DNA of 34,726 bases from an uncultured Candidatus Saccharibacteria bacterium (GTDB taxonomy: Bacteria; Patescibacteriota; Minisyncoccia; Phycocordibacterales; UBA9973). The notes beneath the pieces were generated by a model. It was not told the origin of the DNA. It saw only the letters and a program-made list of their open reading frames with translations, and ran no database searches. Position 1 is the first letter of the stretch. Every line of letters starts with the position of its first letter. The stretch is from NCBI GenBank assembly GCA_964444515.1, contig CAYUGY010000001.1, positions 16,945-51,670 of the forward strand. The letters are read 5' to 3'. This document shows, piece after piece, positions 5,064 through 32,035 of the stretch. A program made the position numbers and the translations under genes.

Positions 5064-6446
5064 TTACAGGTTCTGCAATGGGTCAATCATTGTTTCTTGA
5101 ATCTTCTTGGCAATTGCCGTCACACTGTTTCCATAGAATACATTTGGTGGCTTGCGACCATCTTTACAAGCAGCCCCTGAATAATATCGGCAGGCAGCGT
5201 TTCGTTCTGCTGTATACCCTCCTGCAGCAGCTCCTCTATCAGCCAAATAAATTGCAGTAGCCATAATAGCATCTTCTGGGTTCCATGGGTTTGCATGTGC
5301 CTTACCCACCGCAGTAGCAACACGACTACGAATAGATATCCAGGTCGATGGAATGAACTGTGAAGGACCCATAGCTCCTCCCCAACCTCCTCCTGACGGA
5401 CAAGAGAGTGGTGTTGTGTCTGGATCAAGACCAAGCTCATTCACAATTTTCAAGAACAACGACTGATCATCACGACTAGACTTTCCTGATGCAATTTGTG
5501 CCGGACCCGGCATGATGTTTCGGTAACTCTTTGAGGTAGGGTCTCCTGCACGATTACAAGTTCCAACATTTTTTCCCATATTTGATTCTTGAGTCAAAAT
5601 CGCCAAAATGAGCGCAGGGCGAACACCGGTCTTTGCTGATGCTTCTTTTGCATATTCATACGCATCTTTGAATTGAATTGAACCTGAGTCACGCAATTTG
5701 AACAAACTAGTCAAAATTGCATTCTTTCTTTTTTGCCTATCAGCCAATTCACCTTCATACGAAGATTTTTGTTTTTCATTCAAGCTCAACAATTTTTGTT
5801 GTTCTGCCTGAGTTAATTTCAATTTCTTATTTTGACTTTCTAGTTCAACCTTGGCATCTAATTGCTGGTTTTTACTTGTTTCCAGCTGTTTCTTTTCTGT
5901 TTCAGTATCTTGTTTGACTACCTTGATAGTATCAACAGCGCTTTTTACAGAACGTTTCAATGATGCAAATGAATCTAGATCACGATAAAAATCTGAGACT
6001 GTTTTTCCAGACAACAATACATGCATAATATTATTTTGATCAATCTCATTTGTTTTCTTGATCAACTGCGCAAGTGAATCTCGAGACAAATCTATCTTGT
6101 CATCAAGCACATTAATCTTTTCAACATGTTTTGTAATCTCTTTTGAGAGTTTTGTGATAATTGCTGTTTTCTGACTAATCAATGTCTTCAATTTTGTAAT
6201 TTGAGCATTTAATAAATCAATATCCTTTTTGAGTGAACTACTCTTACCTTTTAGATTATCAATAACAACTTGAATATTAGCGATTTCCGCATCACACACA
6301 GGAATACGTAAACGAAGCTCGTCGTCACTCAAGTTTTTTATTTCAGCAGGTGTCGGACAAGTCAAAGTCTCAGCAGTAACGGTATGTATAGCCGGTGAAA
6401 AAACAAGCATCCCTATAACAAAAATAACTAAAATTTTACCTTTCAT
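5064..6446 (-). CDS. Secreted coiled-coil protein with C-terminal lytic murein transglycosylase (MltB/SLT_2-like) domain
   Basis: Signal peptide, then about 230 aa of heptad-rich K/E/L/Q sequence. The C-terminus has ILAILTQESNMG (catalytic Glu context) and GAMGPSQFIPSTW, typical of MltB-like enzymes. Confidence 0.7.
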   Translation of the reverse strand: MKGKILVIFVIGMLVFSPAIHTVTAETLTCPTPAEIKNLSDDELRLRIPVCDAEIANIQVVIDNLKGKSSSLKKDIDLLNAQITKLKTLISQKTAIITKLSKEITKHVEKINVLDDKIDLSRDSLAQLIKKTNEIDQNNIMHVLLSGKTVSDFYRDLDSFASLKRSVKSAVDTIKVVKQDTETEKKQLETSKNQQLDAKVELESQNKKLKLTQAEQQKLLSLNEKQKSSYEGELADRQKRKNAILTSLFKLRDSGSIQFKDAYEYAKEASAKTGVRPALILAILTQESNMGKNVGTCNRAGDPTSKSYRNIMPGPAQIASGKSSRDDQSLFLKIVNELGLDPDTTPLSCPSGGGWGGAMGPSQFIPSTWISIRSRVATAVGKAHANPWNPEDAIMATAIYLADRGAAAGGYTAERNAACRYYSGAACKDGRKPPNVFYGNSVTAIAKKIQETMIDPLQNL

Positions 6447-6500
6447 ATATTGATATATTGTAACATATTCAATATTCGGTCTTGCATAAAATCTGAGGAA

Positions 6501-6532
6501 AGAAAAAATACGACAGGTGTCGTATTTTTTCT
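6501..6532. terminator. Rho-independent terminator after rplY
   Basis: gaaaaaatacgac aggt gtcgtattttttc gives a 13-bp stem, extendable, with a T-run. Confidence 0.75.
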
Positions 6533-6554
6533 TTCTAAAGTATCTTTACTTTGA

Positions 6555-7187
6555 TTATTCAGCGTCAACAGATTCTTCTTTCTTACCTTTCTTTTCCACT
6601 TCAATAGCAGAAAGATCAAGTGGAGCAGATTCTTCTGATTCTTCTTTTTGAGCTGCAACAAGTGCAACAACTTCTTCACCATCAGTGATCATTGTTACGC
6701 CAGCTGGAAGCTTGATATCAGCCACAGTGATTTGAGTGTCCAAATCAACCAAAGTTGAAATATCTACTTCAAGTGTGTGTGGTAAATCTTTTGGAAGGGC
6801 TTCGACTTCAACTTCGTGAAGCACCTTAACCAATGTTCCCAAGTTATTCTTTTCAGCAGGTGCTACACCAACGAATTCAAGTTGGATTGCTACTTCTACT
6901 GGTTTGTTCATATCAACAGCAAGGAAATCAACATGCATAATGTGGCCCTTTACTGGGTGAAATTGTACATCTTGGAAAAGAACGTTTTTCTTTTCACTGT
7001 CATATGAAAGTGCTACTGGAGTACTTTCACCTGCTTCTTTCCATGCTTTTACGAGAATACGAGACTCAATAGCGAGACTCGTAACTTCTGTGTTAGCGCC
7101 ATAGACAACAGCTGGTACCATGCCGTTAGTTCGCAATTGGTCCAACTTGTCTGCCTTACTTCGCTTTGTTGCTGTAATACTTATCAT
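6555..7187 (-). CDS. rplY: 50S ribosomal protein L25 / general stress protein Ctc (long form)
   Basis: R..GMVPAVVYG, FHPVKGHIMHVDF and an acidic C-terminal extension. Length 210 aa. Confidence 0.92.
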   Translation of the reverse strand: MISITATKRSKADKLDQLRTNGMVPAVVYGANTEVTSLAIESRILVKAWKEAGESTPVALSYDSEKKNVLFQDVQFHPVKGHIMHVDFLAVDMNKPVEVAIQLEFVGVAPAEKNNLGTLVKVLHEVEVEALPKDLPHTLEVDISTLVDLDTQITVADIKLPAGVTMITDGEEVVALVAAQKEESEESAPLDLSAIEVEKKGKKEESVDAE

Positions 7188-7268
7188 GGCAATATCTTAA
7201 CACTAAAAAAGATATATATCAATAGTTTATTTTTATATCTTATTTTTTATTAAGGAAATAAGATACTA

Positions 7269-7297
7269 TTGACATAATATATAGTATATGGTATACT
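7269..7297 (+). promoter_or_regulatory. Strong sigma70-type promoter (extended -10), leader copy 1
   Basis: TTGACA (7269-7274), 17-nt spacer, TGgTATACT (7289-7297). The same architecture occurs at 10192-10221 on the minus strand. Confidence 0.65.
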
Positions 7298-7308
7298 ATA
7301 TACAAGTT

Positions 7309-7389
7309 AAGTTCTTTGATATCTTGTTATTTAGTTGGGTGAACAGAGCGGATTTATATCCCTTGTGTCCACCTAATTAAATAAACAAA
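7309..7389 (+). promoter_or_regulatory. Conserved structured 5' leader, copy 1 (candidate cis-regulatory RNA, class unknown)
   Basis: About 85% identical to the reverse complement of 10100-10182. Hairpin 7331-7380 has the P1 helix ttagttgggtg/ccacctaattaa. A compensatory change relative to copy 2 preserves pairing. No U-tract follows. Confidence 0.5.
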
Positions 7390-7704
7390 ATGAAAAATAT
7401 CATATTAATCATTATCTCTCTTGTTGCTTTGGCAACTCAATCTTGCAAAAAAGAAGTATCTCAGGACTATCTTAATAGTCGCTCAAGGATACTTTCCAAG
7501 GAACAACCTAAAGGTTCGTTCAAATATGCATACAAAATTAAGGGGCAAGATTCATCATCAAAAAACCCTAAGACAGGAGAGGTTCGCAGTGAACATGCCC
7601 TCGCAGATGCATTTTCAAACAATGATTATGAGATTGGAAGTGAGGCATCATTTGATCGCACTGACAGCCTCGTAGTTACTGGATACGAAAACAAACAAAA
7701 GTAG
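7390..7704 (+). CDS. Small putative lipoprotein, hypothetical
   Basis: MKNIILIIISLVALATQSC is a signal peptide with a lipobox-like ..ATQS|C. The mature part is hydrophilic. Length 104 aa. Confidence 0.6.
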   Translation: MKNIILIIISLVALATQSCKKEVSQDYLNSRSRILSKEQPKGSFKYAYKIKGQDSSSKNPKTGEVRSEHALADAFSNNDYEIGSEASFDRTDSLVVTGYENKQK

Positions 7705-7711
7705 CACTCAA

Positions 7712-7740
7712 AAAGCCTTGTATTTTATATACAAGGCTTT
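7712..7740. terminator. Bidirectional terminator between convergent genes
   Basis: aaagccttgta ttttata tacaaggcttt is an 11-bp stem. Confidence 0.75.
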
Positions 7741-7746
7741 CTTTAT

Positions 7747-9444
7747 TTATGACCCGTGAACCATATCGTGCTTTTCGAGAATGATATGTGAGGACATATA
7801 TTCTTTGGTAGTACCAACCTTCTTGTTCGGATTGAAAATATTTTCTGGATCAAATAATTCTTTTGTTTGTTTGAACAGATTCAAAATCTCAGGAGAAAAG
7901 ATTTTTCCGAGGTATGGAGTACGGACCAGACCGTCGTTGTGTTCAGCGGTAATCGTTCCATTGAACTCCTTGACCAAATCATAGACCTTTTCAGATAACT
8001 CCATAATCACCTCTTTGGTGTGTGTATCAGTGAAATCCATCAATGGAATAATATGGAAGTTTCCATTTCCTGCATGTCCTGCAATGGTGTAAACCAAGTT
8101 ATATTCTTTCAAAAGCGCGTTCAATCGAGGAAGAAATGCTGGTAAAAATTCTGGCTTGATACACACATCATCAATGAACGGTGCAGTATGCTTGCCTTTG
8201 ACATGTTTGCGGAGCATATTGAAACTCTCGCGTCGCATACGCCAATATTTTTCTCCATCAGCTTTTGACTTGGTTACCCGTGTCTTGAAACCGAATGAGG
8301 CAATTTGCTTTTGAGCATTTCTTGTCGCTCGTTCAACTTCTTGCAAATTGTTCCCGGTAAATTCTGCAATCATGACAAGTTTCGGCACACCGCCAGTTGC
8401 CATCATAAAAGCTTCAGGAATAAATGAAATTCCCATTTTGATAAATTGCCACAATGACATTCGCTTCAAAAAATCCGGCATGAACTTCACTGCCAATTTC
8501 AAACTATAATCATCATAAGATTCGATACTTTCTGGACCAAGTGGAAGAATCGTATCAACCAAATGTCCCAATCGAGAAAGATCATTCATAAATACGACAA
8601 GTAGACGTGATTCTTTGGTCACATCAGTCAGATTGAATGTAATCTCAGTCACGATTCCGAGTGTTCCTTGTGAGCCGACAATCAGTCGACACAAATCAAA
8701 ACTTTCAGTTTCTTTATCATAAATATTCCATAGATAATATCCAGCAGAATTTTTCGATACATTGGGTTTTGCTGCAGTGATCAACATATCGTTGTCATTG
8801 ATTAGTTGCAACAGCTCTTTGTAGAGTTCTGCTTCAACACTGACTTCTGCAACTTTTTGATACAACTCTTTCTTGGTCATTCGCTTGACGGTGTATTCAT
8901 ACCCGTCACGAAAGACCACTTTCAATTCACGAATCCAATCTTCAGTCTTGCCGAATTTGATCGATTTTTCCCCACCACTATTGTTCCCTACCATTCCACC
9001 AACAGCACACAGTTCTTTTGATGCGGTATATGATGGCATTATCAAATTTTCAGCTAGTGTAACTTTTTCAAAGTCTCGGTAGAATGTTCCCGGAAGTACG
9101 GTCGCGTATCCTGTCACTTTGTGACCATACGACATTTCATCAGTCTTTGTAATCTTCCCAATACCATTCATATAACGAGACATATCAAGAATGATTGATT
9201 CATTGATTGAACCACCTGACATACAAGTTCCTGCACAACGTGCAGTGATTGAAAGTGTCGGATCTTCTTTTTTGTGATCATTGACCCATTTGACCAAGAG
9301 ACAAACGTCCGTCCCGTCTTTTGGAAATACAACCACCTTTGGACGAACCACAAAGATACTCGCATCACGAGAATATTTCTCCAACACTTCGTCACTCATT
9401 TCTACATCCCCTCTTATTACTTTTTTCAAATCATCAAAATTCAT
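7747..9444 (-). CDS. FAD-linked oxidase (GlcD / D-lactate dehydrogenase-like, PCMH-type FAD binding)
   Basis: The N-terminal FAD-binding region has VVFPKDGTDVCLLVKW and RCAGTCMSGGS. The C-terminal region has AGHAGNGNFHIIP and TAEHNDG, typical of the family. Length 565 aa. Confidence 0.85.
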   Translation of the reverse strand: MNFDDLKKVIRGDVEMSDEVLEKYSRDASIFVVRPKVVVFPKDGTDVCLLVKWVNDHKKEDPTLSITARCAGTCMSGGSINESIILDMSRYMNGIGKITKTDEMSYGHKVTGYATVLPGTFYRDFEKVTLAENLIMPSYTASKELCAVGGMVGNNSGGEKSIKFGKTEDWIRELKVVFRDGYEYTVKRMTKKELYQKVAEVSVEAELYKELLQLINDNDMLITAAKPNVSKNSAGYYLWNIYDKETESFDLCRLIVGSQGTLGIVTEITFNLTDVTKESRLLVVFMNDLSRLGHLVDTILPLGPESIESYDDYSLKLAVKFMPDFLKRMSLWQFIKMGISFIPEAFMMATGGVPKLVMIAEFTGNNLQEVERATRNAQKQIASFGFKTRVTKSKADGEKYWRMRRESFNMLRKHVKGKHTAPFIDDVCIKPEFLPAFLPRLNALLKEYNLVYTIAGHAGNGNFHIIPLMDFTDTHTKEVIMELSEKVYDLVKEFNGTITAEHNDGLVRTPYLGKIFSPEILNLFKQTKELFDPENIFNPNKKVGTTKEYMSSHIILEKHDMVHGS

Positions 9445-9486
9445 AGGTCTATTATAACTTTTCTTCGTAATTTACCCAAAGTGCAG

Positions 9487-9536
9487 AAAATAAAAAACCC
9501 GCACAATGTACGGGCTTTCCGTGCAAAGTGCGGGTT
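9487..9536 (-). terminator. Terminator after the 185-aa membrane protein gene
   Basis: On the minus strand, aacccgcac...gtgcgggtt is a 9-bp stem with an internal acgg/ccgt helix, followed by ttttttatttt. Confidence 0.6.
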
Positions 9537-9541
9537 GTGAT

Positions 9542-10099
9542 TTAAGCAGCAATTTCTTTTTCTTTAAGTAATTCTGACCATTTAGTGAAGAAAATCTTTC
9601 TCACTAAAAATCCAATTATTGTTGCTAACATCAGAGCCCCTAGAGCAGTGAAAAAATTCGCATCAGGGTTAGCAATAATCCAAAAAAACAGCAGTATAAC
9701 ATTAAGAATAATGCTATATCTTACATGAATAATCGCCAGTATCGTAGATACAGTAAACATAACAATGTAAAGATTTAAGAGTACCCATACATACCAATCA
9801 GGTACGTACCCTTCGTAATTCCAACCGAAAATTTCGAGGATTACTAATAGTAATCCTAATGCTACTGTTATGAAATAACCGGTAGTCCATTTTTTCTTAA
9901 GATCAGGTCTTAAGAAAGGTATCTCAATGAGGGAGATTACCAGTCCCATTACAACGCTCATATACATACAAATTTTGAGTATATAAGAAGTGTAATTTTC
10001 CGGAACAATATCTTTAATTTCACTGGACACAACAGTTGCAATGGCAACAAAAATCATGGATACAATCCAGATTTGGAAATAATTGATTACTTTTTTCAT
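9542..10099 (-). CDS. Polytopic membrane protein (about 5-6 TM), hypothetical
   Basis: ORF track. Hydrophobic throughout. Visibly more AT-rich than neighbours. No family recognised; PnuC was considered but the sequence does not convincingly resemble it. Confidence 0.65.
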   Translation of the reverse strand: MKKVINYFQIWIVSMIFVAIATVVSSEIKDIVPENYTSYILKICMYMSVVMGLVISLIEIPFLRPDLKKKWTTGYFITVALGLLLVILEIFGWNYEGYVPDWYVWVLLNLYIVMFTVSTILAIIHVRYSIILNVILLFFWIIANPDANFFTALGALMLATIIGFLVRKIFFTKWSELLKEKEIAA

Positions 10100-10182
10100 T
10101 TTGTTTTATATTAATTGAGTGGACACAGAGGACAGCATCCGCTCTGTTCACTCAACTAAATAACAACATATCAAAGAACTTT
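10100..10182 (-). promoter_or_regulatory. Conserved structured 5' leader, copy 2
   Basis: The reverse complement reads aagttctttgatatgttgttatttagttgagtgaacagagcggatgctgtcctctgtgtccactcaattaatataaaacaaa followed by ATG. Hairpin spans 10111-10159. Confidence 0.5.
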
Positions 10183-10191
10183 ACTATTGAT

Positions 10192-10221
10192 AGTATACCA
10201 TATAATATACCTATTTGTCAA
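10192..10221 (-). promoter_or_regulatory. Promoter of leader copy 2
   Basis: Minus strand: TTGACA (10221-10216), 18-nt spacer, TGgTATACT (-10 at 10197-10192). Confidence 0.6.
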
Positions 10222-10250
10222 TAGGCGGAACCTTTCAGGTTCCGCCTATT
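10220..10250. terminator. GC-rich perfect palindrome (terminator of the upstream secreted-protein gene), abutting the -35 box
   Basis: aataggcggaacct ttc aggttccgcctatt is a 14-bp perfect stem. Confidence 0.7.
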
Positions 10251-10285
10251 GATTTTACCTATTTTAAGCTTCTATTTAAAGCTTT

Positions 10286-10792
10286 TTAGAGCATTGTTGC
10301 TTCTGACATACTGTTTGGAGCTGTCTCTTCCTTGCCTGTTCCACCACAAGCCTTGATGTCAGCCTTGAATGTATCCCAAGCTGTTTTACGAACTGACTTG
10401 AGTGCTGTACGAGCAGATTTTGAAGCTGTCTCAAATGCCTGACGAGTAGTTTTGCGAGCAGTGTTTCGTTCGTTTGACGTTGTCTTTGCCCATGCATCTT
10501 TCAAACCAGTTGTACGCGCAGTCAAAGCAGTTTTCATTGAAGTATTGAATGTGTCGAGTCCAGCAATCAAAGCATTTTCACGCTTTTCCACTGCTGTTCC
10601 AGCACAAACTGGATCTGCTACGTTTTTCTTGTTTGACATTTTTTCTTTCAAATCACGCATGAGCCCACCCTTGTCTGAATGTTCAACTTCACCTGTTGAT
10701 GAAGCCGATGTTGTTGTAACCATTTCTTCTGCAAAAGCAACGTTACAGAGAATCAAAGAAAGTGCGAATGTTGATACGAGAAATTTTTTCAT
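10286..10792 (-). CDS. Secreted helical protein, hypothetical
   Basis: From ATG 10792, MKKFLVSTFALSLILCNVAFA is a signal peptide. It is followed by T/A/K/R-rich helical repeats (..TALTARTTGLKDAWAKTT..ARKTTRQAFETASKSARTALKSVRKTAWDTFK..). Confidence 0.6.
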   Translation of the reverse strand: MKKFLVSTFALSLILCNVAFAEEMVTTTSASSTGEVEHSDKGGLMRDLKEKMSNKKNVADPVCAGTAVEKRENALIAGLDTFNTSMKTALTARTTGLKDAWAKTTSNERNTARKTTRQAFETASKSARTALKSVRKTAWDTFKADIKACGGTGKEETAPNSMSEATML

Positions 10793-10886
10793 AATTATGA
10801 TGTATGTAGTTATTGGATAATGTTTTAATTGTACCACTTAGGTACAAGACTTATGACGAATGACTTTGTGGAAAATTTCTTGACTG

Positions 10887-11753
10887 CTAACTCAAATGAT
10901 TGAAAAGTTTCAAACGACTTTCTACTACTTTTTCAATTGCCTCAACTGCCGGAGTAAGTAGTTTGGCTGGATTGATTTCGTTTGGTTGAGCTTCGATTGA
11001 TTGCTCTACTGCTTCTTTGTATGCAAGACGAATTTCACTGTTGATATGCACAATCGAAATTCCTGCATTGATTGCGTTGGTAAAATCTTCATCACGAAGT
11101 CCTGAGCCACCATGTAGTACTAGTGGTGTCTTAACTGTCTCTTTTATTTCTTTTACTAATTCTGCATTGATGTGTGGTTTGCCAGATTTGATGAGCCCAT
11201 GAATAGAACCAACTGATGGTGCAAATACATCAACACCTGTTGCGTCTACAAAGGCTTTTGCGTCGGCTGGATTGGTCAACACACCAGCACCTTCTGGAAT
11301 ACTGTCTTTGATATCAGATCCTGAACCAATGTATCCGAGCTCGGCTTCTACCAAAATATCGCGACCAGTCGTAGCAGAAACTTCACGTGCGTAATCTACA
11401 CAGTGTTTTGTCATTGCAATATTTTCATCATTTGGTAATTTGGCTCCGTCGATGATTACCATATCAAACCCTGCATCGATACATTTTTTGACTGATTCAA
11501 AACTGCCGTGGTGATCAGCATTCAAAAAGATTGGATAACTATCACGGTTACGAATTGCATGCACGAGTGCAACAACTTCTTCGAGTCCAGCAAATTTTTC
11601 TTCACCTTCTGAAACACCGATAATGACTGGAAGATTTAGTTTTTTGGCTGCATTATAAATACCGTGCAGTCCTTCTAAATTTGAAATATTAAAATGCCCG
11701 ATGGCAACCTTATTCTCCTCTGCTTCTTTGATGTATTCACGTAATGTCTTCAT
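10887..11753 (-). CDS. fba: Class II fructose-1,6-bisphosphate aldolase
   Basis: AIGHFNISNLE, LNADHHGS and LVLHGGSG..INSE are class II FBA/tagatose-bisphosphate aldolase family motifs. Length 288 aa. Confidence 0.9.
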   Translation of the reverse strand: MKTLREYIKEAEENKVAIGHFNISNLEGLHGIYNAAKKLNLPVIIGVSEGEEKFAGLEEVVALVHAIRNRDSYPIFLNADHHGSFESVKKCIDAGFDMVIIDGAKLPNDENIAMTKHCVDYAREVSATTGRDILVEAELGYIGSGSDIKDSIPEGAGVLTNPADAKAFVDATGVDVFAPSVGSIHGLIKSGKPHINAELVKEIKETVKTPLVLHGGSGLRDEDFTNAINAGISIVHINSEIRLAYKEAVEQSIEAQPNEINPAKLLTPAVEAIEKVVESRLKLFNHLS

Positions 11754-13514: not shown

Positions 13515-13600
13515 ATAGGAATAGTATATCAGATTATAAAATAGACGGAATAAAGAAAAAGTGCGACTGCTTTTATTTGTCCCATTTGAAACCATTCGCC

Positions 13601-13696
13601 TATTTCGTCGAGCATACTCCAAGAGTCATTCCGGTGAATGAGGAGCGAGTGAAAGTGTCATTACTTTCACATTGTCCGAGTCGAGGACGAAATATA
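13601..13696. repeat. Intergenic hairpin element, copy B (related to 874-943)
   Basis: Outer stem tatttcgtc (13601-09) / gacgaaata (13686-94). Inner hairpins are tcattc-cggt-gaatga and gtgaaagt-gtcatt-actttcac (13649-13670). The 3' 60 nt align with copy A. Confidence 0.55.
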
Positions 13697-13784
13697 AAAT
13701 ATCTTTTTGTGTGTTGATATTTTTTATTCGCGCGAATTAGGAAATAAAAAAACCACTTCTTTATGAAGAGGTTTTTAACCCAGA

Positions 13785-19037: not shown

Positions 19038-19394
19038 TTATGCAGCCAACTGATGCTCAGTTTCTAAACCAAGTTTCTCTTCGAGTTCTTGAACTTGTGC
19101 TTCAAGTTTTACTCTTTTCACCGGGTCAGTTTCTGAAATCAATTGCATATTGATAGTATCAAGCTTTTCTTGTGTCAACATTTCTTCAGAAAGACTTGTA
19201 ACATCACCGTTTTCAAAAATTTCTTGTTCTATATGACCTTCTTTGTTTATAACTTTGTGTGACAATTCTTGACTTGTTCCGTTTTGATTTAAATCAATTG
19301 GACTATTTTCAGAAGCAGCTTGAGGTTTTTCTTGAGATGAACCTGTTTGCCCTGAAATCTTCTTAAATGTGTTTTCTAGAAAATTAAATTTCAT
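19038..19394 (-). CDS. 118-aa acidic hypothetical protein
   Basis: ORF track. Low-complexity E/Q/S-rich sequence with a C-terminal helix. Confidence 0.45.
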   Translation of the reverse strand: MKFNFLENTFKKISGQTGSSQEKPQAASENSPIDLNQNGTSQELSHKVINKEGHIEQEIFENGDVTSLSEEMLTQEKLDTINMQLISETDPVKRVKLEAQVQELEEKLGLETEHQLAA

Positions 19395-19405
19395 ATTTTT
19401 TTATA

Positions 19406-19483
19406 TTAGTTAGTAATACTATTTCCTGTCTTGATAACATGATCAACAAGCGTATAGGTGTACCCCATTTCATTACGATACCA
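19406..19483 (-). pseudogene. Duplicated 3'-terminal fragment of gap (last 25 codons plus stop)
   Basis: Translates to WYRNEMGYTYTLVDHVIKTGNSITN*, compared with the real C-terminus WYDNEMGYTYTLVDHVIKTGRTINN* (19674-19751). A 21-nt core is identical (19455-19475 = 19723-19743). No upstream gap sequence is attached. Confidence 0.75.
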
Positions 19484-19659: not shown

Positions 19660-19673
19660 AATACTTTTTTTAG

Positions 19674-20729
19674 TTAATTATTAATCGTTCGTCCAGTTTT
19701 GATCACATGATCGACAAGTGTGTAGGTGTACCCCATTTCATTATCGTACCATGCGAGGACTTTGACAAGGTTTCCTCCTACCACACGAGTCATTTCCAAA
19801 TCAGCAATAGAAGCATGACTATTTCCCAAAATATCACTTGAAACCAATGGTTCTTCGGTAACTGCAAAAATTCCCTTCCATTTGTCTTGCAAAGAAGCTT
19901 TTTTGAGTACTTCATTTACTTCTTCTCCTGTCGTGTTTTTCTTTGAGATGAATGTCACGTCGACGATTGAACCTGCTGGTACTGGTACACGGAGTGAAAT
20001 ACCATCAAAGAGTCCTTCGAGTTTTGGATAGGCTTTGGTCACGGCGATTGCAGCACCCGTTGAAGAAGGCACGATATTTTGCGCAGCAGCACGGCCTTCA
20101 CGCAAATCTTTCTTACTTGGTCCATCGACAAGTGCTTGAGTACCAGTGTATGCGTGTGTTGTCGAAAGCACTGCTTTTTCTACCCCAAAGACTTCGTCGA
20201 GAATTCCAATCAGTGGCGATGCGCAGTTTGTTGTACAAGAAGCGTTTGAAGTGATATCACAGGTACCGAACTTTTCTTCGTTAACTCCAAGTAGAATTGT
20301 TTCTCCGTTAACAGAACCGTCCCCTTTACTTGGCGCAGAAATCACTACTTTTTTTGCACCTTGATCGATGTGGAATTTTGCTTTTTCAAATGCAGTGAAG
20401 AGTCCGGTTGATTCGACAACAACATCAATATTCAATTCTTTCCATGGAAGTTTTGTAGTATCTTTTTCTCCAATAAATTTCACCACCTTTCCATCGATAC
20501 TAATTCCACCATCTACTACTTTGACTTCATGAGGAAATTGTTTGTACACCGTATCGTATTTCAACAGATATGCGAGTGATTCGAGCGTCCCTAAATCATT
20601 CACTGCAACAATTTCAATTTCTGGTCTATTCCAGGCAATTTTTAAAAACGCACGACCGATACGACCAAATCCATTAATAGCTACGCGAACCTTTTTGTCT
20701 TTTGATCCAAATAATTTCATATGAATCAA
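19674..20729 (-). CDS. gap: Glyceraldehyde-3-phosphate dehydrogenase
   Basis: VAINGFGRIGR, SNASCTTNC (catalytic Cys) and WYDNEMGY. The TTG at 20729 has a GGTGAG Shine-Dalgarno 8 nt upstream. ATG at 20720 is the alternative start. Confidence 0.95.
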   Translation of the reverse strand: MIHMKLFGSKDKKVRVAINGFGRIGRAFLKIAWNRPEIEIVAVNDLGTLESLAYLLKYDTVYKQFPHEVKVVDGGISIDGKVVKFIGEKDTTKLPWKELNIDVVVESTGLFTAFEKAKFHIDQGAKKVVISAPSKGDGSVNGETILLGVNEEKFGTCDITSNASCTTNCASPLIGILDEVFGVEKAVLSTTHAYTGTQALVDGPSKKDLREGRAAAQNIVPSSTGAAIAVTKAYPKLEGLFDGISLRVPVPAGSIVDVTFISKKNTTGEEVNEVLKKASLQDKWKGIFAVTEEPLVSSDILGNSHASIADLEMTRVVGGNLVKVLAWYDNEMGYTYTLVDHVIKTGRTINN

Positions 20730-23512: not shown

Positions 23513-23584
23513 GGCTCTATCGTCTATCGGTTAGGACACATCCTTCTCAAGGATGGAAGCAGGGTTCGATTCCCTGTAGAGTCA
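23513..23584 (+). tRNA. tRNA-Glu (anticodon CUC)
   Basis: 72-nt cloverleaf: acceptor ggctcta/tagagtc, D arm gtct..ggac, anticodon arm catcc-TTCTCAA-ggatg, T arm caggg-ttcgatt-ccctg, discriminator A. No encoded CCA. Confidence 0.9.
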
Positions 23585-23590
23585 CAATAT

Positions 23591-23731: not shown

Positions 23732-23754
23732 CGATTCCCTGTAGAGTCACAATA
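23732..23754 (+). repeat. 23-bp perfect direct copy of the tRNA-Glu 3' end (partner 23567-23589)
   Basis: cgattccctgtagagtcacaata occurs twice, 165 bp apart. Similarity continues with one indel into the following A-run and terminator start. Confidence 0.9.
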
Positions 23755-23755
23755 A

Positions 23756-24354: not shown

Positions 24355-24401
24355 TTTCTTTTTTATTAATTCCGAATTTATATTACATTTATTATACAGA
24401 A

Positions 24402-24432
24402 AGTCAACAGAGCGCGACCGAAGGTCGCGCGG
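24402..24432. repeat. GC-rich palindrome with GTCAACAG flank
   Basis: agtcaacagaGCGCGACCgaaGGTCGCGCgg is an 8-bp GC stem (24412-19 / 24423-30) followed by ttttt on the plus strand. It is related to 26704-26738. Confidence 0.7.
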
Positions 24433-26653: not shown

Positions 26654-26703
26654 ACTTTAAAGGTATTATTCTCCTCAAAAACAATACTATTTATATAATA
26701 AAT

Positions 26704-26738
26704 AGTCAATAGAGCGCGACCTCCGGTCGCGCTCTATT
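26704..26738. repeat. GC-rich palindrome with GTCAATAG flank (likely ftsI terminator)
   Basis: agtcAATAGAGCGCGACCtccGGTCGCGCTCTATT is a 14-bp perfect stem whose core GCGCGACC/GGTCGCGC is identical to 24412-24430. Confidence 0.7.
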
Positions 26739-30554: not shown

Positions 30555-32035
30555 TTAATCATTTTTTTCGTTTTTCAGTATCGGGAAGAAAATAACATCT
30601 CGGAGATTTTTTTGTTCAGTAAACAATGCAACCAATCGATCGATTCCCATTCCGAATCCGGTCATTGGAGGCATACCGTGTTCCATTGCAGTCAAGAATC
30701 GTTCGTCGATTTCCATCGCTTCATCATCCCCTCCTTCCTTTGCTTTGGTCTGAGCTTCAAGTAATGAACGTTGAATTGTCGGGTCAACAAGTTCGGCGTA
30801 TTGATTGGTGATTTCAGCACCAGCAATAACTAGTTGTGCAACACGAGCTGTTCCATCAGTATTTTGAATCGCCAATGGTTTCAAATCACTTGGATAATCA
30901 AGTATGTTGGCTGAATCAAATTGAGACGAACTGACTTTTTGAAAACGTGATCAAGGAGATTTCCTTTACCTGTTTTTTCTGCTTCAGCTTTATCCATACC
31001 GTATTCAATTGCTTTAGCTTTGATATCTTCAATCGACGCAGTCACTTCGATACCAGCGCTTTGTTTAAGTAATTGGTTGAATGGAATACGTGGCCACGCT
31101 GCAGTGAAATCGATTTCGTGAGCGACATCTTCTTTGTCATAAACAGTGAAGGTTGTTTTGCCGACAACATCAGTTGCGAGTTTCTTCAATAATGTTTCAG
31201 TCCAGTGCATATTTTCTTCGAGTGATGCGTAAGCGGCGTACCATTCAATCATCGTAAACTCTTGTATGTGTGTTGGATCACTTCCTTCATTGCGGAAATT
31301 TTTTCCGATTTCATAGACACGATTAAATCCTGCAGTTGTGAGGATTTTGTGATCAAGTTCAAGTGCAATACGAAGCACCATCGGCATTGCATAATCATTG
31401 TGATAGGTTTCAAAGACTTTTGCCATGGCACCACCAGCTTGGTTTTGCAAAATCGGTGTTTCAATTTCCATAAAATCTTTCTCATCGAAAAATGCACGAA
31501 TAGCAGTGATGATCTTTGAACGAAGTATAAATCGTTCTTTGACTTCTTTGTCCATCAAAATATCCAAATAGCGCTTGCGGTATGATTCTTCAACATCTTT
31601 GATACCGTGATATTTGTCCGGTAATTGACGAAGTGCTTTGGTCAACATTTTCCAATCAGTTACGAGCAAACTTTGTGCCCCGCGTTCTGTGGTAAAGATA
31701 GTTCCCGTCACAGCAACAAAATCTGCACCATCAACCGTGTCGACAAATAAAGACATTTTATCTTCTGCCAGAGTGTCTTTCTTGATGACTGCTTGAAATT
31801 CTCCAGTACCATCATTGAGTGGTACAAACAAAATAGCACCTTGTCCACGGATACCCATCACGCGCCCGACAAGTGTCACAATCTCAGCATTGTTTACTAG
31901 CTCATCAAATTGTTCGAGTACTTGTGCAATTGTATGAGTATACGAAACAGAAGAAGCATATGCTTCCATTCCTGTTTCGTTCAGCTTTTCTATTTTTGAG
32001 AGACGGACGTCTCGTAATTCTTCGATTGATGCCAT
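30555..32035 (-). pseudogene. lysS: Lysine--tRNA ligase (class II) interrupted by a frameshift near 30893-30904
   Basis: ORF 30881..32035 carries the anticodon-binding domain and motifs 1-2 and ends ..LIQPTYLIIQVI* (TGA). ORF 30555..30884, in the -1 frame, continues ..(Y)PSDLKPLAIQ..GMPPMTGFGMGIDRLV (motif 3). Together they make about 493 aa, a normal LysRS length. Confidence 0.85.

Follow-up and report, generated by a model that had tools for sequence, protein, structure and literature searches.

A promoter and structured mRNA leader reused ahead of unrelated, apparently exchangeable envelope genes in an uncultured Candidatus Saccharibacteria lineage

Modules in which a promoter and a structured mRNA leader are reused in front of different genes are a known kind of bacterial element. 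Correia and ERIC-type repeats carry promoters and form mRNA hairpins that are cleaved by RNase III. The stabiliser hairpins of the 5' untranslated region (5' UTR), as in the E. coli ompA leader, the B. subtilis aprE leader, and the phage SP82 stabiliser, are located at or within a few nucleotides of the 5' end of mRNAs that possess a Shine-Dalgarno (SD) sequence. Conserved 5' regions also precede the variable surface lipoproteins of Mycoplasma (vlp/vsa) and Borrelia (erp/mlp, with upstream homology boxes), which form paralogous gene families, often with phase-variation switches. The element analysed here is located on a 34,726-nt stretch of DNA (hereafter, the window) from an uncultured Candidatus Saccharibacteria bacterium (contig CAYUGY010000001.1), in which a near-consensus promoter (TTGACA / TGGTATACT) followed by a leader of approx. 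85 nt occurs twice, at 7269-7389 on the plus strand and at 10221-10100 on the minus strand, in front of two mutually unrelated open reading frames (ORFs) of 104 and 185 amino acids (aa). The explanation that we consider best, with a probability of roughly one half, is that one promoter and 5'-UTR module, specific to this lineage, is reused for hypervariable envelope cassettes and that its hairpin acts in cis on mRNA stability or translation. As such, the module would be a further case of the known kind. The components of the two units are as follows.

7269-7297, plus strand: promoter of copy 1, with TTGACA at 7269-7274, a 17-nt spacer with a TG extension, and TATACT at 7292-7297.
7305-7389, plus strand: leader of copy 1, with AGTTCTTTGAT at 7310-7320, the core hairpin at 7331-7380, and a 9-nt A-rich spacer before the ATG at 7390.
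7390-7704, plus strand: cargo of copy 1, a lipoprotein-like ORF of 104 aa with a signal peptide and Cys19.
7712-7740, plus strand: intrinsic terminator of the 104-aa unit, called by the terminator scan.
9486-9536, minus strand: terminator of the 185-aa unit, with a hairpin at 9520-9492 (13 pairs; CCCGCAC..ACGG..CCGT..GTGCGGG) and a T-run.
9542-10099, minus strand: cargo of copy 2, a polytopic membrane protein of 185 aa with approx. six hydrophobic segments (32% GC), a member of a small unannotated family.
10111-10159, minus strand: core hairpin of copy 2, with 20 base pairs, three 1x1 mismatches, and a GCU loop (86.6 bits).
Approx. 10185-10100, minus strand: leader of copy 2, approx. 85 nt, with the transcription start predicted from the position of the -10 box and the ATG at 10099.
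10192-10221, minus strand: promoter of copy 2, with the -35 box TTGACA at 10221-10216, an 18-nt spacer with TG, and the -10 box TATACT at 10197-10192 (the extended -10 box TGGTATACT spans 10200-10192).
10220-10250, minus strand: GC palindrome with 13-nt arms, AATAGGCGGAACC and GGTTCCGCCTATT, the 3' arm of which overlaps the first bases of the -35 box of copy 2.

A preliminary description of this locus held that the second copy carries the same promoter and leader as the first, and this is borne out by the sequence. In a promoter scan of positions 6400-11000, a match at 11 of 12 positions together with a TG extension was found only at copies 1 and 2, which are also the top-scoring promoters ahead of any ORF in the window. 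The repeat search revealed a 49-nt stretch of 94% complementarity between the two copies, which share 89% identity over 74 nt (7280-7353 vs. 10209-10137), and a 29-nt leader pattern has two matches where 0.00 would be expected by chance. Finally, a covariance model (R2) run with filters off over the whole window recovered just copies 1 and 2, at 79.7 and 86.6 bits, respectively. Both units are monocistronic, each with its own promoter and its own terminator, as had been proposed for the 185-aa gene. The GC palindrome, which the same description gave as a 14-bp upstream boundary, is real; however, its arms are 13 nt long, and one of them runs into the -35 box. It is the terminator hairpin of the upstream gene, which encodes a secreted protein of 168/183 aa, and it directly abuts copy 2.

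Each leader folds into a single long imperfect hairpin, on which the minimum free energy and centroid structures concur. The leaders of copies 1 and 2 reach -27.7 kcal/mol (z -5.4) and -29.2 kcal/mol (z -4.7), respectively, and none of 200 shuffled sequences folds as stably as either. The core hairpin comprises 20 base pairs, three 1x1 mismatches, and a loop of 3-4 nt; the consensus helix amounts to approx. -22 kcal/mol, and whole leaders range from -28 to -34 kcal/mol. The conserved single-stranded segment AGTTCTTTGAT comes before the core, and an A-rich spacer of 9-11 nt separates the core from AUG AAA in copies 1 and 2. In copy 2, the complete order is the conserved AGTTCTTTGAT (10180-10170), a lower-stem extension, the hairpin, the 11-nt A-rich spacer, and the ATG. 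Across copies, the core hairpin stops 6-16 nt short of an A-rich start codon that has no SD sequence. Reading through copies 1 and 2 revealed neither an SD sequence nor a U-run after the hairpin, which is followed by AAUUAAAUAAACAAAAUG and is left uncalled by the terminator scan; thus, it is not an intrinsic terminator or attenuator. In an Rfam scan of the whole window, only two tRNAs pass the gathering thresholds, and nothing plausible covers the leaders at E <= 10 over 7150-10350.

The conserved part of the element is an RNA hairpin on the sense strand, with a helix upheld by compensatory changes, a free loop, and dispensable mismatches. This follows from an alignment of seven sequences, which represent five paralogue types from one species-level lineage. 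Standard pairs occupy 98.6% of the alignment cells, and double-sided (compensatory) changes are found at 6 of the 20 pairs (10 cells), a number that was reached by none of 500 shuffles. When the 3' partner is slid by 1-3 columns as a control, pairing falls to 33-47%. G-U pairs are conserved, and the covariance model scores 80-87 bits on the sense strand vs. approx. 40 bits on the antisense strand. The loop differs even among near-identical strains (GCT, ACT, and GTT), and in a divergent copy from a related strain (copy C, see below), two of the three internal mismatches (A.C and G.G) become Watson-Crick pairs (A-U and G-C). Because the G-U pairs are conserved, the strands score differently, the loop is free, and the mismatches are closed in copy C, the helix is best understood as acting in the transcript rather than as a DNA operator or a ligand pocket. 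At the same time, 16 of the 20 pairs are sequence-invariant among four paralogues, while the promoter spacers and loops diverge, and the 5' segment is conserved in all five paralogues, including copy C, whose hairpin sequence differs.

Several other readings of the leader were tried and set aside. An eight-codon upstream ORF with a TTG start, present in copies 1 and 2, might have encoded a leader peptide, but the start is missing from copy A and the frame is not kept in copy B (both from a related strain, see below). AGUUCUUUGA was considered as an anti-start-codon sequence, and its pairing in RNAduplex was not significant against shuffles (0.19-0.66). A CIRCE/HrcA box, a LexA box (GAAC-N4-GTTC), and mimicry of the L25 site on 5S rRNA were each dismissed on reading the sequences.

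The initiation context of neighbouring genes is also of relevance. In approx. ten genes of the window (e.g., at 7187, 9444, 11753, and 22430), those for L25, the FAD oxidase, and FBA among them, the ATG lies 6-12 nt behind the end of a -10-like box and is not preceded by an SD sequence, which suggests that the transcriptome might be mostly leaderless or nearly so. If most mRNAs are indeed nearly leaderless, the structured leader of 85 nt would therefore be an exception.

To compare strains, related loci were gathered around the FAD-oxidase gene, which sits between copies 1 and 2. The record closest to the window lineage is 'MAG: bacterium isolate ELA612' (GCA_037130655.1), a metagenome-assembled genome (MAG) from a freshwater, unclassified lineage, and more distant FAD-oxidase matches carry the name Candidatus Nomurabacteria. 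The conserved backbone reads PfkB - [slot A] - FBA - 168-aa ORF - [slot C] - FAD oxidase - [slot B] - L25 - SLT - L31 - RF1, and the three slots are occupied as follows in the window and in two strains whose flanking genes are 97% identical to those of the window (L002 and L014).

Window, copy 1, slot B: the 104-aa lipoprotein-like ORF behind the leader.
Window, copy 2, slot C: the 185-aa polytopic ORF behind the leader.
L002, copy A, slot A: an ORF of 106 aa with two transmembrane segments behind the leader.
L002, copy B, slot B: a lipoprotein of 108 aa; the leader has an 11-nt deletion.
L002, copy C, slot C: a lipoprotein of 118 aa behind the same promoter and a AGTTCTTT start, with a much diverged hairpin.
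L014, slot C: an unrelated secreted protein of 231 aa.

In these sequences, the cargo behind one leader is swapped between strains: one recombination junction falls at the promoter or leader, and the opposite one at the terminator. In slot C, the promoter and leader of L014, together with the opening 14 nt of the ORF, match those of the window at 96.6% identity; beyond this point, the ORFs are unrelated, and homology returns only at the terminator. Another locus, L001, is a mosaic, in which a window-type leader and 185-aa gene are joined to an L002-type upstream region, with the junction at the -35 box. Cargo genes that have not been replaced diverge as well: the lipoprotein orthologues of the window and a 97% strain are 51% identical, compared with 97% for the adjoining FAD oxidase. 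The leader is thus better conserved than its cargo, which makes co-expression of the leader-bearing genes plausible. In relatives at 80%, 79%, and 66% identity, which have no hairpin, the slots are either empty or hold variable ORFs with short A-rich leaders. As a separate observation, slot B of both L002 (12272-14005) and L014 (3305-5059) holds a protein of 577-584 aa with a Por_Secre_tail domain (C-terminal sorting of the type IX secretion system type), which is absent from the window.

The claim that one leader serves unrelated envelope genes has therefore been confirmed and extended, since further cargos are found in L002 and L014. No Pfam family was assigned to the 104-aa ORF, the 185-aa ORF, or the cargo ORFs of the related strains. 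Among 5.8 billion proteins, the 104-aa lipoprotein has no homologue beyond itself and the 185-aa protein has only a twin at 99% identity; an exhaustive HMMER search with the latter yielded nine distant full-length relatives (27-38% identity) with the common motifs H-x-RY-S-I and R-K-I-F-F-T-K-W-S. An AlphaFold 2 model of the 185-aa protein, built from ten sequences, is all-helical at a mean predicted confidence (pLDDT) of 66, and a Foldseek search with this model against the PDB gave no significant match (best E = 0.7, TM-score <= 0.38). The proposal that this protein is a transporter for a sensed ligand is consequently not supported by family or predicted fold.

The module itself appears to have a very narrow distribution. 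Among 185,579 GTDB species genomes, the hairpin core, searched for as a degenerate pattern, was found on one contig, which belongs to the ELA612 MAG and carries copies A and B, and a strict hairpin pattern had no match in JGI metagenomes. Eight pattern matches in viral contigs are at chance level (<= 19 bits each with the covariance model), and blastn against phage and plasmid collections returned no match. Genomes that carry the element have 2-3 copies, all within approx. 5-10 kb, and no solitary hairpin without a promoter was found in the window (covariance model, filters off) or in the related MAG (two strict matches). Because genome, metagenome, viral, and phage/plasmid searches found it only in this lineage, we regard the element as young and confined to one species-level lineage.

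How, then, does this locus compare with the systems described previously? Similar to Correia and ERIC repeats, it is a repeated intergenic unit that gives neighbouring genes a promoter and a long 5'-UTR hairpin; however, it has no terminal inverted repeats with target duplication, it is not dispersed (2-3 copies per genome), and its hairpin never occurs without the promoter. The resemblance to the ompA, aprE, and SP82 stabilisers lies in a stable, cargo-independent leader stem-loop on mRNAs for envelope or secreted proteins that are strongly expressed (here, by prediction). In contrast to those stabilisers, the hairpin begins 20-35 nt downstream of the predicted 5' end, and it adjoins an A-rich start that lacks an SD sequence. 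As in Mycoplasma vlp/vsa and Borrelia erp/mlp, a conserved promoter, 5' UTR, and first codons precede divergent surface proteins, and recombination occurs between members, but here the cargo proteins are mutually unrelated and neither a repeat tract nor an invertible segment was seen. A further parallel is offered by the putative mobile promoters (Matus-Garcia, Nijveen and van Passel 2012; PMC3575422), defined by at least 80% identity over at least 50 nt upstream of non-homologous genes in one genome, a definition within which the 74 nt shared by copies 1 and 2 ahead of unrelated ORFs fall. In both cases, similar upstream regions precede non-homologous genes with no known mobile element attached, and the region may hold a post-transcriptional regulatory motif. 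Unlike putative mobile promoters, the conserved part is chiefly a transcribed leader with a covarying hairpin, and the copies cluster in three neighbouring variable slots with cargo that is always of the envelope type and swapped between strains. The preliminary description had itself named a mobile promoter cassette as an alternative; unrelated cargo behind the same leader in 97% strains agrees with that idea, whereas the restriction to envelope proteins, instead of a random class of genes, does not.

Within this context, the module consists of a near-consensus sigma-70 promoter with an extended -10 box, fused to the structured leader of approx. 85 nt, and heads short monocistronic cassettes, each with its own terminator. 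The envelope proteins encoded by these cassettes (lipoproteins, secreted proteins, and small polytopic proteins) evolve fast and vary from strain to strain, and the cassettes fill hypervariable slots between the conserved housekeeping genes for PfkB, FBA, the FAD oxidase, and L25. The hairpin would act in cis on its mRNA and may shield it from 5'-to-3' decay, define or gate an unstructured initiation region, or do both, with the outcome that any ORF placed behind the module would be expressed like the other cassettes. A role in stability or initiation is favoured because the helix is generic (the loop and mismatches are free to change), is situated directly upstream of the A-rich start, and is always accompanied by a very strong promoter.

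A number of points weigh against this explanation. The transcription start, any processing, and the effect of the hairpin have all been deduced from sequence, and the distance of 20-35 nt between the predicted 5' end and the hairpin is not that of a classical 5'-terminal stabiliser. A hairpin of approx. -22 kcal/mol so near the AUG could repress rather than promote translation. Moreover, the evidence base consists of five paralogue types from a single species-level lineage. Finally, the invariance of 16 of the 20 pairs in four paralogues with diverged promoter spacers, together with the conservation of AGTTCTTTGA, exceeds what a generic structure would need, and therefore a specific trans-acting factor would fit better.

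Such a factor is central to the main rival explanation, a post-transcriptional regulon, in which the stem and AGUUCUUUGA would be bound or cleaved by one trans-acting factor (an RNA-binding protein, RNase III, or a small RNA) that switches the leader-bearing envelope genes together. We regard it as possible, although doubtful. In addition to the stem, which is conserved beyond the need for pairing while spacers and loops diverge, the 5' segment is kept in five paralogues, including copy C, and the length of the helix (20 bp plus three mismatches) is compatible with an RNase III substrate, the size of which is approx. two helical turns. On the other hand, family scans of the window proteins revealed no candidate regulator adjoining the leader loci, copy C retains the architecture yet changes much of the stem sequence and closes two mismatches, and a regulon of just 2-3 copies per genome, all within approx. 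5-10 kb, would be a small one. The earlier idea of a small regulon under one signal thus stands in so far as co-expression is plausible, whereas no feature for sensing a ligand was found, i.e., no Rfam match, no alternative fold, and no U-run or SD platform.

It is also conceivable, albeit rather unlikely, that the promoter-leader and the recurrent terminator are the conserved arms of an expression-site system that swaps envelope cassettes by recombination, and that the same architecture serves more widely, in AT-rich and largely leaderless bacteria, as a device for translation or stability. Such a device could comprise a strong promoter, a short 5' single strand, a hairpin of 20-30 bp, and an AUG without an SD sequence; it might work by processing to a nearly leaderless mRNA or by loading of ribosomes at the 5' segment, brought beside the AUG by the helix. 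With regard to terminators, the family found at 9486-9536 (the same arms and a T-run) recurs behind different cassettes, namely, at 7655-7705 and 9870-9915 in L002 and at 1432-1475 in L014. In these two strains, it is followed by a box that contains the perfect palindrome ATTCGCGCGAAT and a similar promoter of the next housekeeping gene (FBA or FAD oxidase).

As for a wider occurrence, metagenomes were scanned with a hand-chosen pattern, the promoter followed by AGTTCNTT, which yielded at least 120 loci (L015-L134). Among the matches listed, approx. one quarter of the unique ones have a hairpin of 20-33 bp that begins 12-33 nt downstream, with an ORF soon after, often for a small membrane protein or a lipoprotein (e.g., L033 4349-4454, L057 3851-3950, L075 5074-5183, and L089 11119-11223). 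Also among the matches listed, the leaders of L033, L074, L127, L057, L056, and L129 form a family of approx. 80% identity, in which the cargo proteins of L033 and L057 have no similarity. Pairing between the 5' segment and the start codon in the metagenome leaders is enriched just approx. 2-fold over shuffles. Because the pattern was self-chosen and the unselected control comprised only 19 promoters, the hairpin-after-promoter pattern should be treated as a lead and not as a result.

Returning to the module and to its hairpin, the palindromic nature of the latter raises the question of whether it could be a DNA operator, bound by a dimeric repressor that blocks transcription. The imperfect palindrome lies between promoter and ATG, its arms are conserved in sequence, and CIRCE/HrcA is a precedent. 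However, the compensatory changes preserve pairing and not the sequence of half-sites, the conserved G-U pairs can function only on the sense RNA, the spacing of the arms shifts with the length of the loop (3 or 4 nt), and arms of 23 nt far exceed those of typical operators. An operator is thus improbable.

That the leader is a riboswitch, with a small molecule as its ligand, a few envelope genes as its regulon, and the 185-aa protein as the transporter, is very improbable. One structured leader on unrelated genes of a single genome is what such a switch might look like, and the 1x1 mismatches, conserved in four copies, could in principle form a pocket. Nonetheless, an unpaired pocket is not kept, given that two of the three mismatches pair in copy C and the loop varies freely; the single, very stable hairpin has no competing fold, U-run, or SD platform; and Rfam offers no match even at E = 10. 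With a single matching genome among 185,579 GTDB species genomes and no match in JGI metagenomes, a coherent set of genes across taxa is not apparent, and the cargo, which is interchangeable between strains, includes a 185-aa protein without a transporter fold or family. It was reasonable to ask whether homologues elsewhere carry the same leader: three of the distant relatives of the 185-aa protein were inspected in their contigs, and in all three a strong TTGACA-17-TGnTATAAT promoter is followed by a leader (45-115 nt) from which the motif is missing.

The two weakest explanations can be dealt with briefly. An RNA thermometer, in which heat would melt the hairpin and free the initiation region, is suggested by a hairpin with internal mismatches beside the start codon of envelope genes, and thermometers are known in surface-protein genes of pathogens, but it can hardly be expected here, as the helix and leaders are too stable for lake temperatures, the AUG lies outside the core hairpin with no SD sequence to sequester (both in contrast to ROSE and fourU elements), and copy C is a nearly perfect helix. 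Equally hard to credit is a mobile element or recombination site, either a miniature inverted-repeat transposable element (MITE) with an outward promoter or an attC-like site, to which repetition beside variable small ORFs, cassette-like replacement between conserved flanks, and other MITE-like repeats in the window might point, because terminal inverted repeats and target duplications are both missing from the unit, which always runs from the -35 box to the ATG, neither the two copies of the window nor the two strict matches of the related MAG are solitary hairpins, the exchange junctions lie elsewhere than the hairpin, phage and plasmid collections have no match and viral matches are at noise level, inspection of the sequence revealed no R''/R' core sites of attC, and the window ORFs include neither an integrase nor a transposase.

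With respect to the latter, integron attC sites (RYYYAAC ... GTTRRRY, with extrahelical bases and in an array beside an integrase) would have an inverse core site, which the 3' arm does not possess, and each unit here has its own promoter and terminator. The leader also differs from that of type I toxin mRNAs, which encode hydrophobic toxins of less than approx. 60 aa and are marked by an antisense RNA that overlaps them and by a primary transcript that is inert, as the cargo measures 104-231 aa and includes lipoproteins and a secreted protein; the antisense side was covered by the promoter scan only.

Some further features of the window should be noted. Two copies of a 57-nt repeat (84% identical) were noted, one within 13600-13735, inside an insertion of approx. 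120 nt, and one at 887-943, where the L27 and L9 genes converge. The box TAATTCGCGCGAATA|GGCGAATAG, unbroken in related strains, is split by the insertion, and the repeat has a MITE-like look. The 3' end (23567-23590) of a tRNA at 23513-23584 is repeated 165 nt downstream (23732-23755), which might be what is left of the site where an integrative element once attached. Direct repeats also occur at the start of the window (55 nt at 1-55 and 84-138, 100% identical with an 83-nt period) and at 19393-19483 and 19661-19751 (91 nt, 78% identical), the latter at or overlapping the ends of minus-strand ORFs, where they may be the remnant of a local duplication. A class II aminoacyl-tRNA synthetase (tRNA-synt_2 and OB anticodon domains) is split into two ORFs, 30555-30884 and 30881-32035, with a 4-nt overlap, which could reflect a frameshift, a pseudogene, or an assembly error. 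The string ACAGAGCG of the leader hairpin also occurs, probably by coincidence, in two similar GC-rich palindromes at 24387-24430 and 26689-26738 (..ACAGAGCGCGACC..GGTCGCGC), which are probably terminators.

What might the module mean for this group of bacteria? As regards annotation, the locus cautions against taking a structured leader that unrelated genes have in common for a riboswitch regulon before comparative checks are made. It also adds a covariation-supported RNA motif that is absent from Rfam, and it bears on the handling of mRNAs that have a leader but no SD sequence in genomes whose genes look mostly leaderless. If the explanation preferred here is true, an uncultivated bacterium with a small genome would vary its envelope repertoire by plugging unrelated surface and membrane genes between a shared promoter-leader and a shared terminator.

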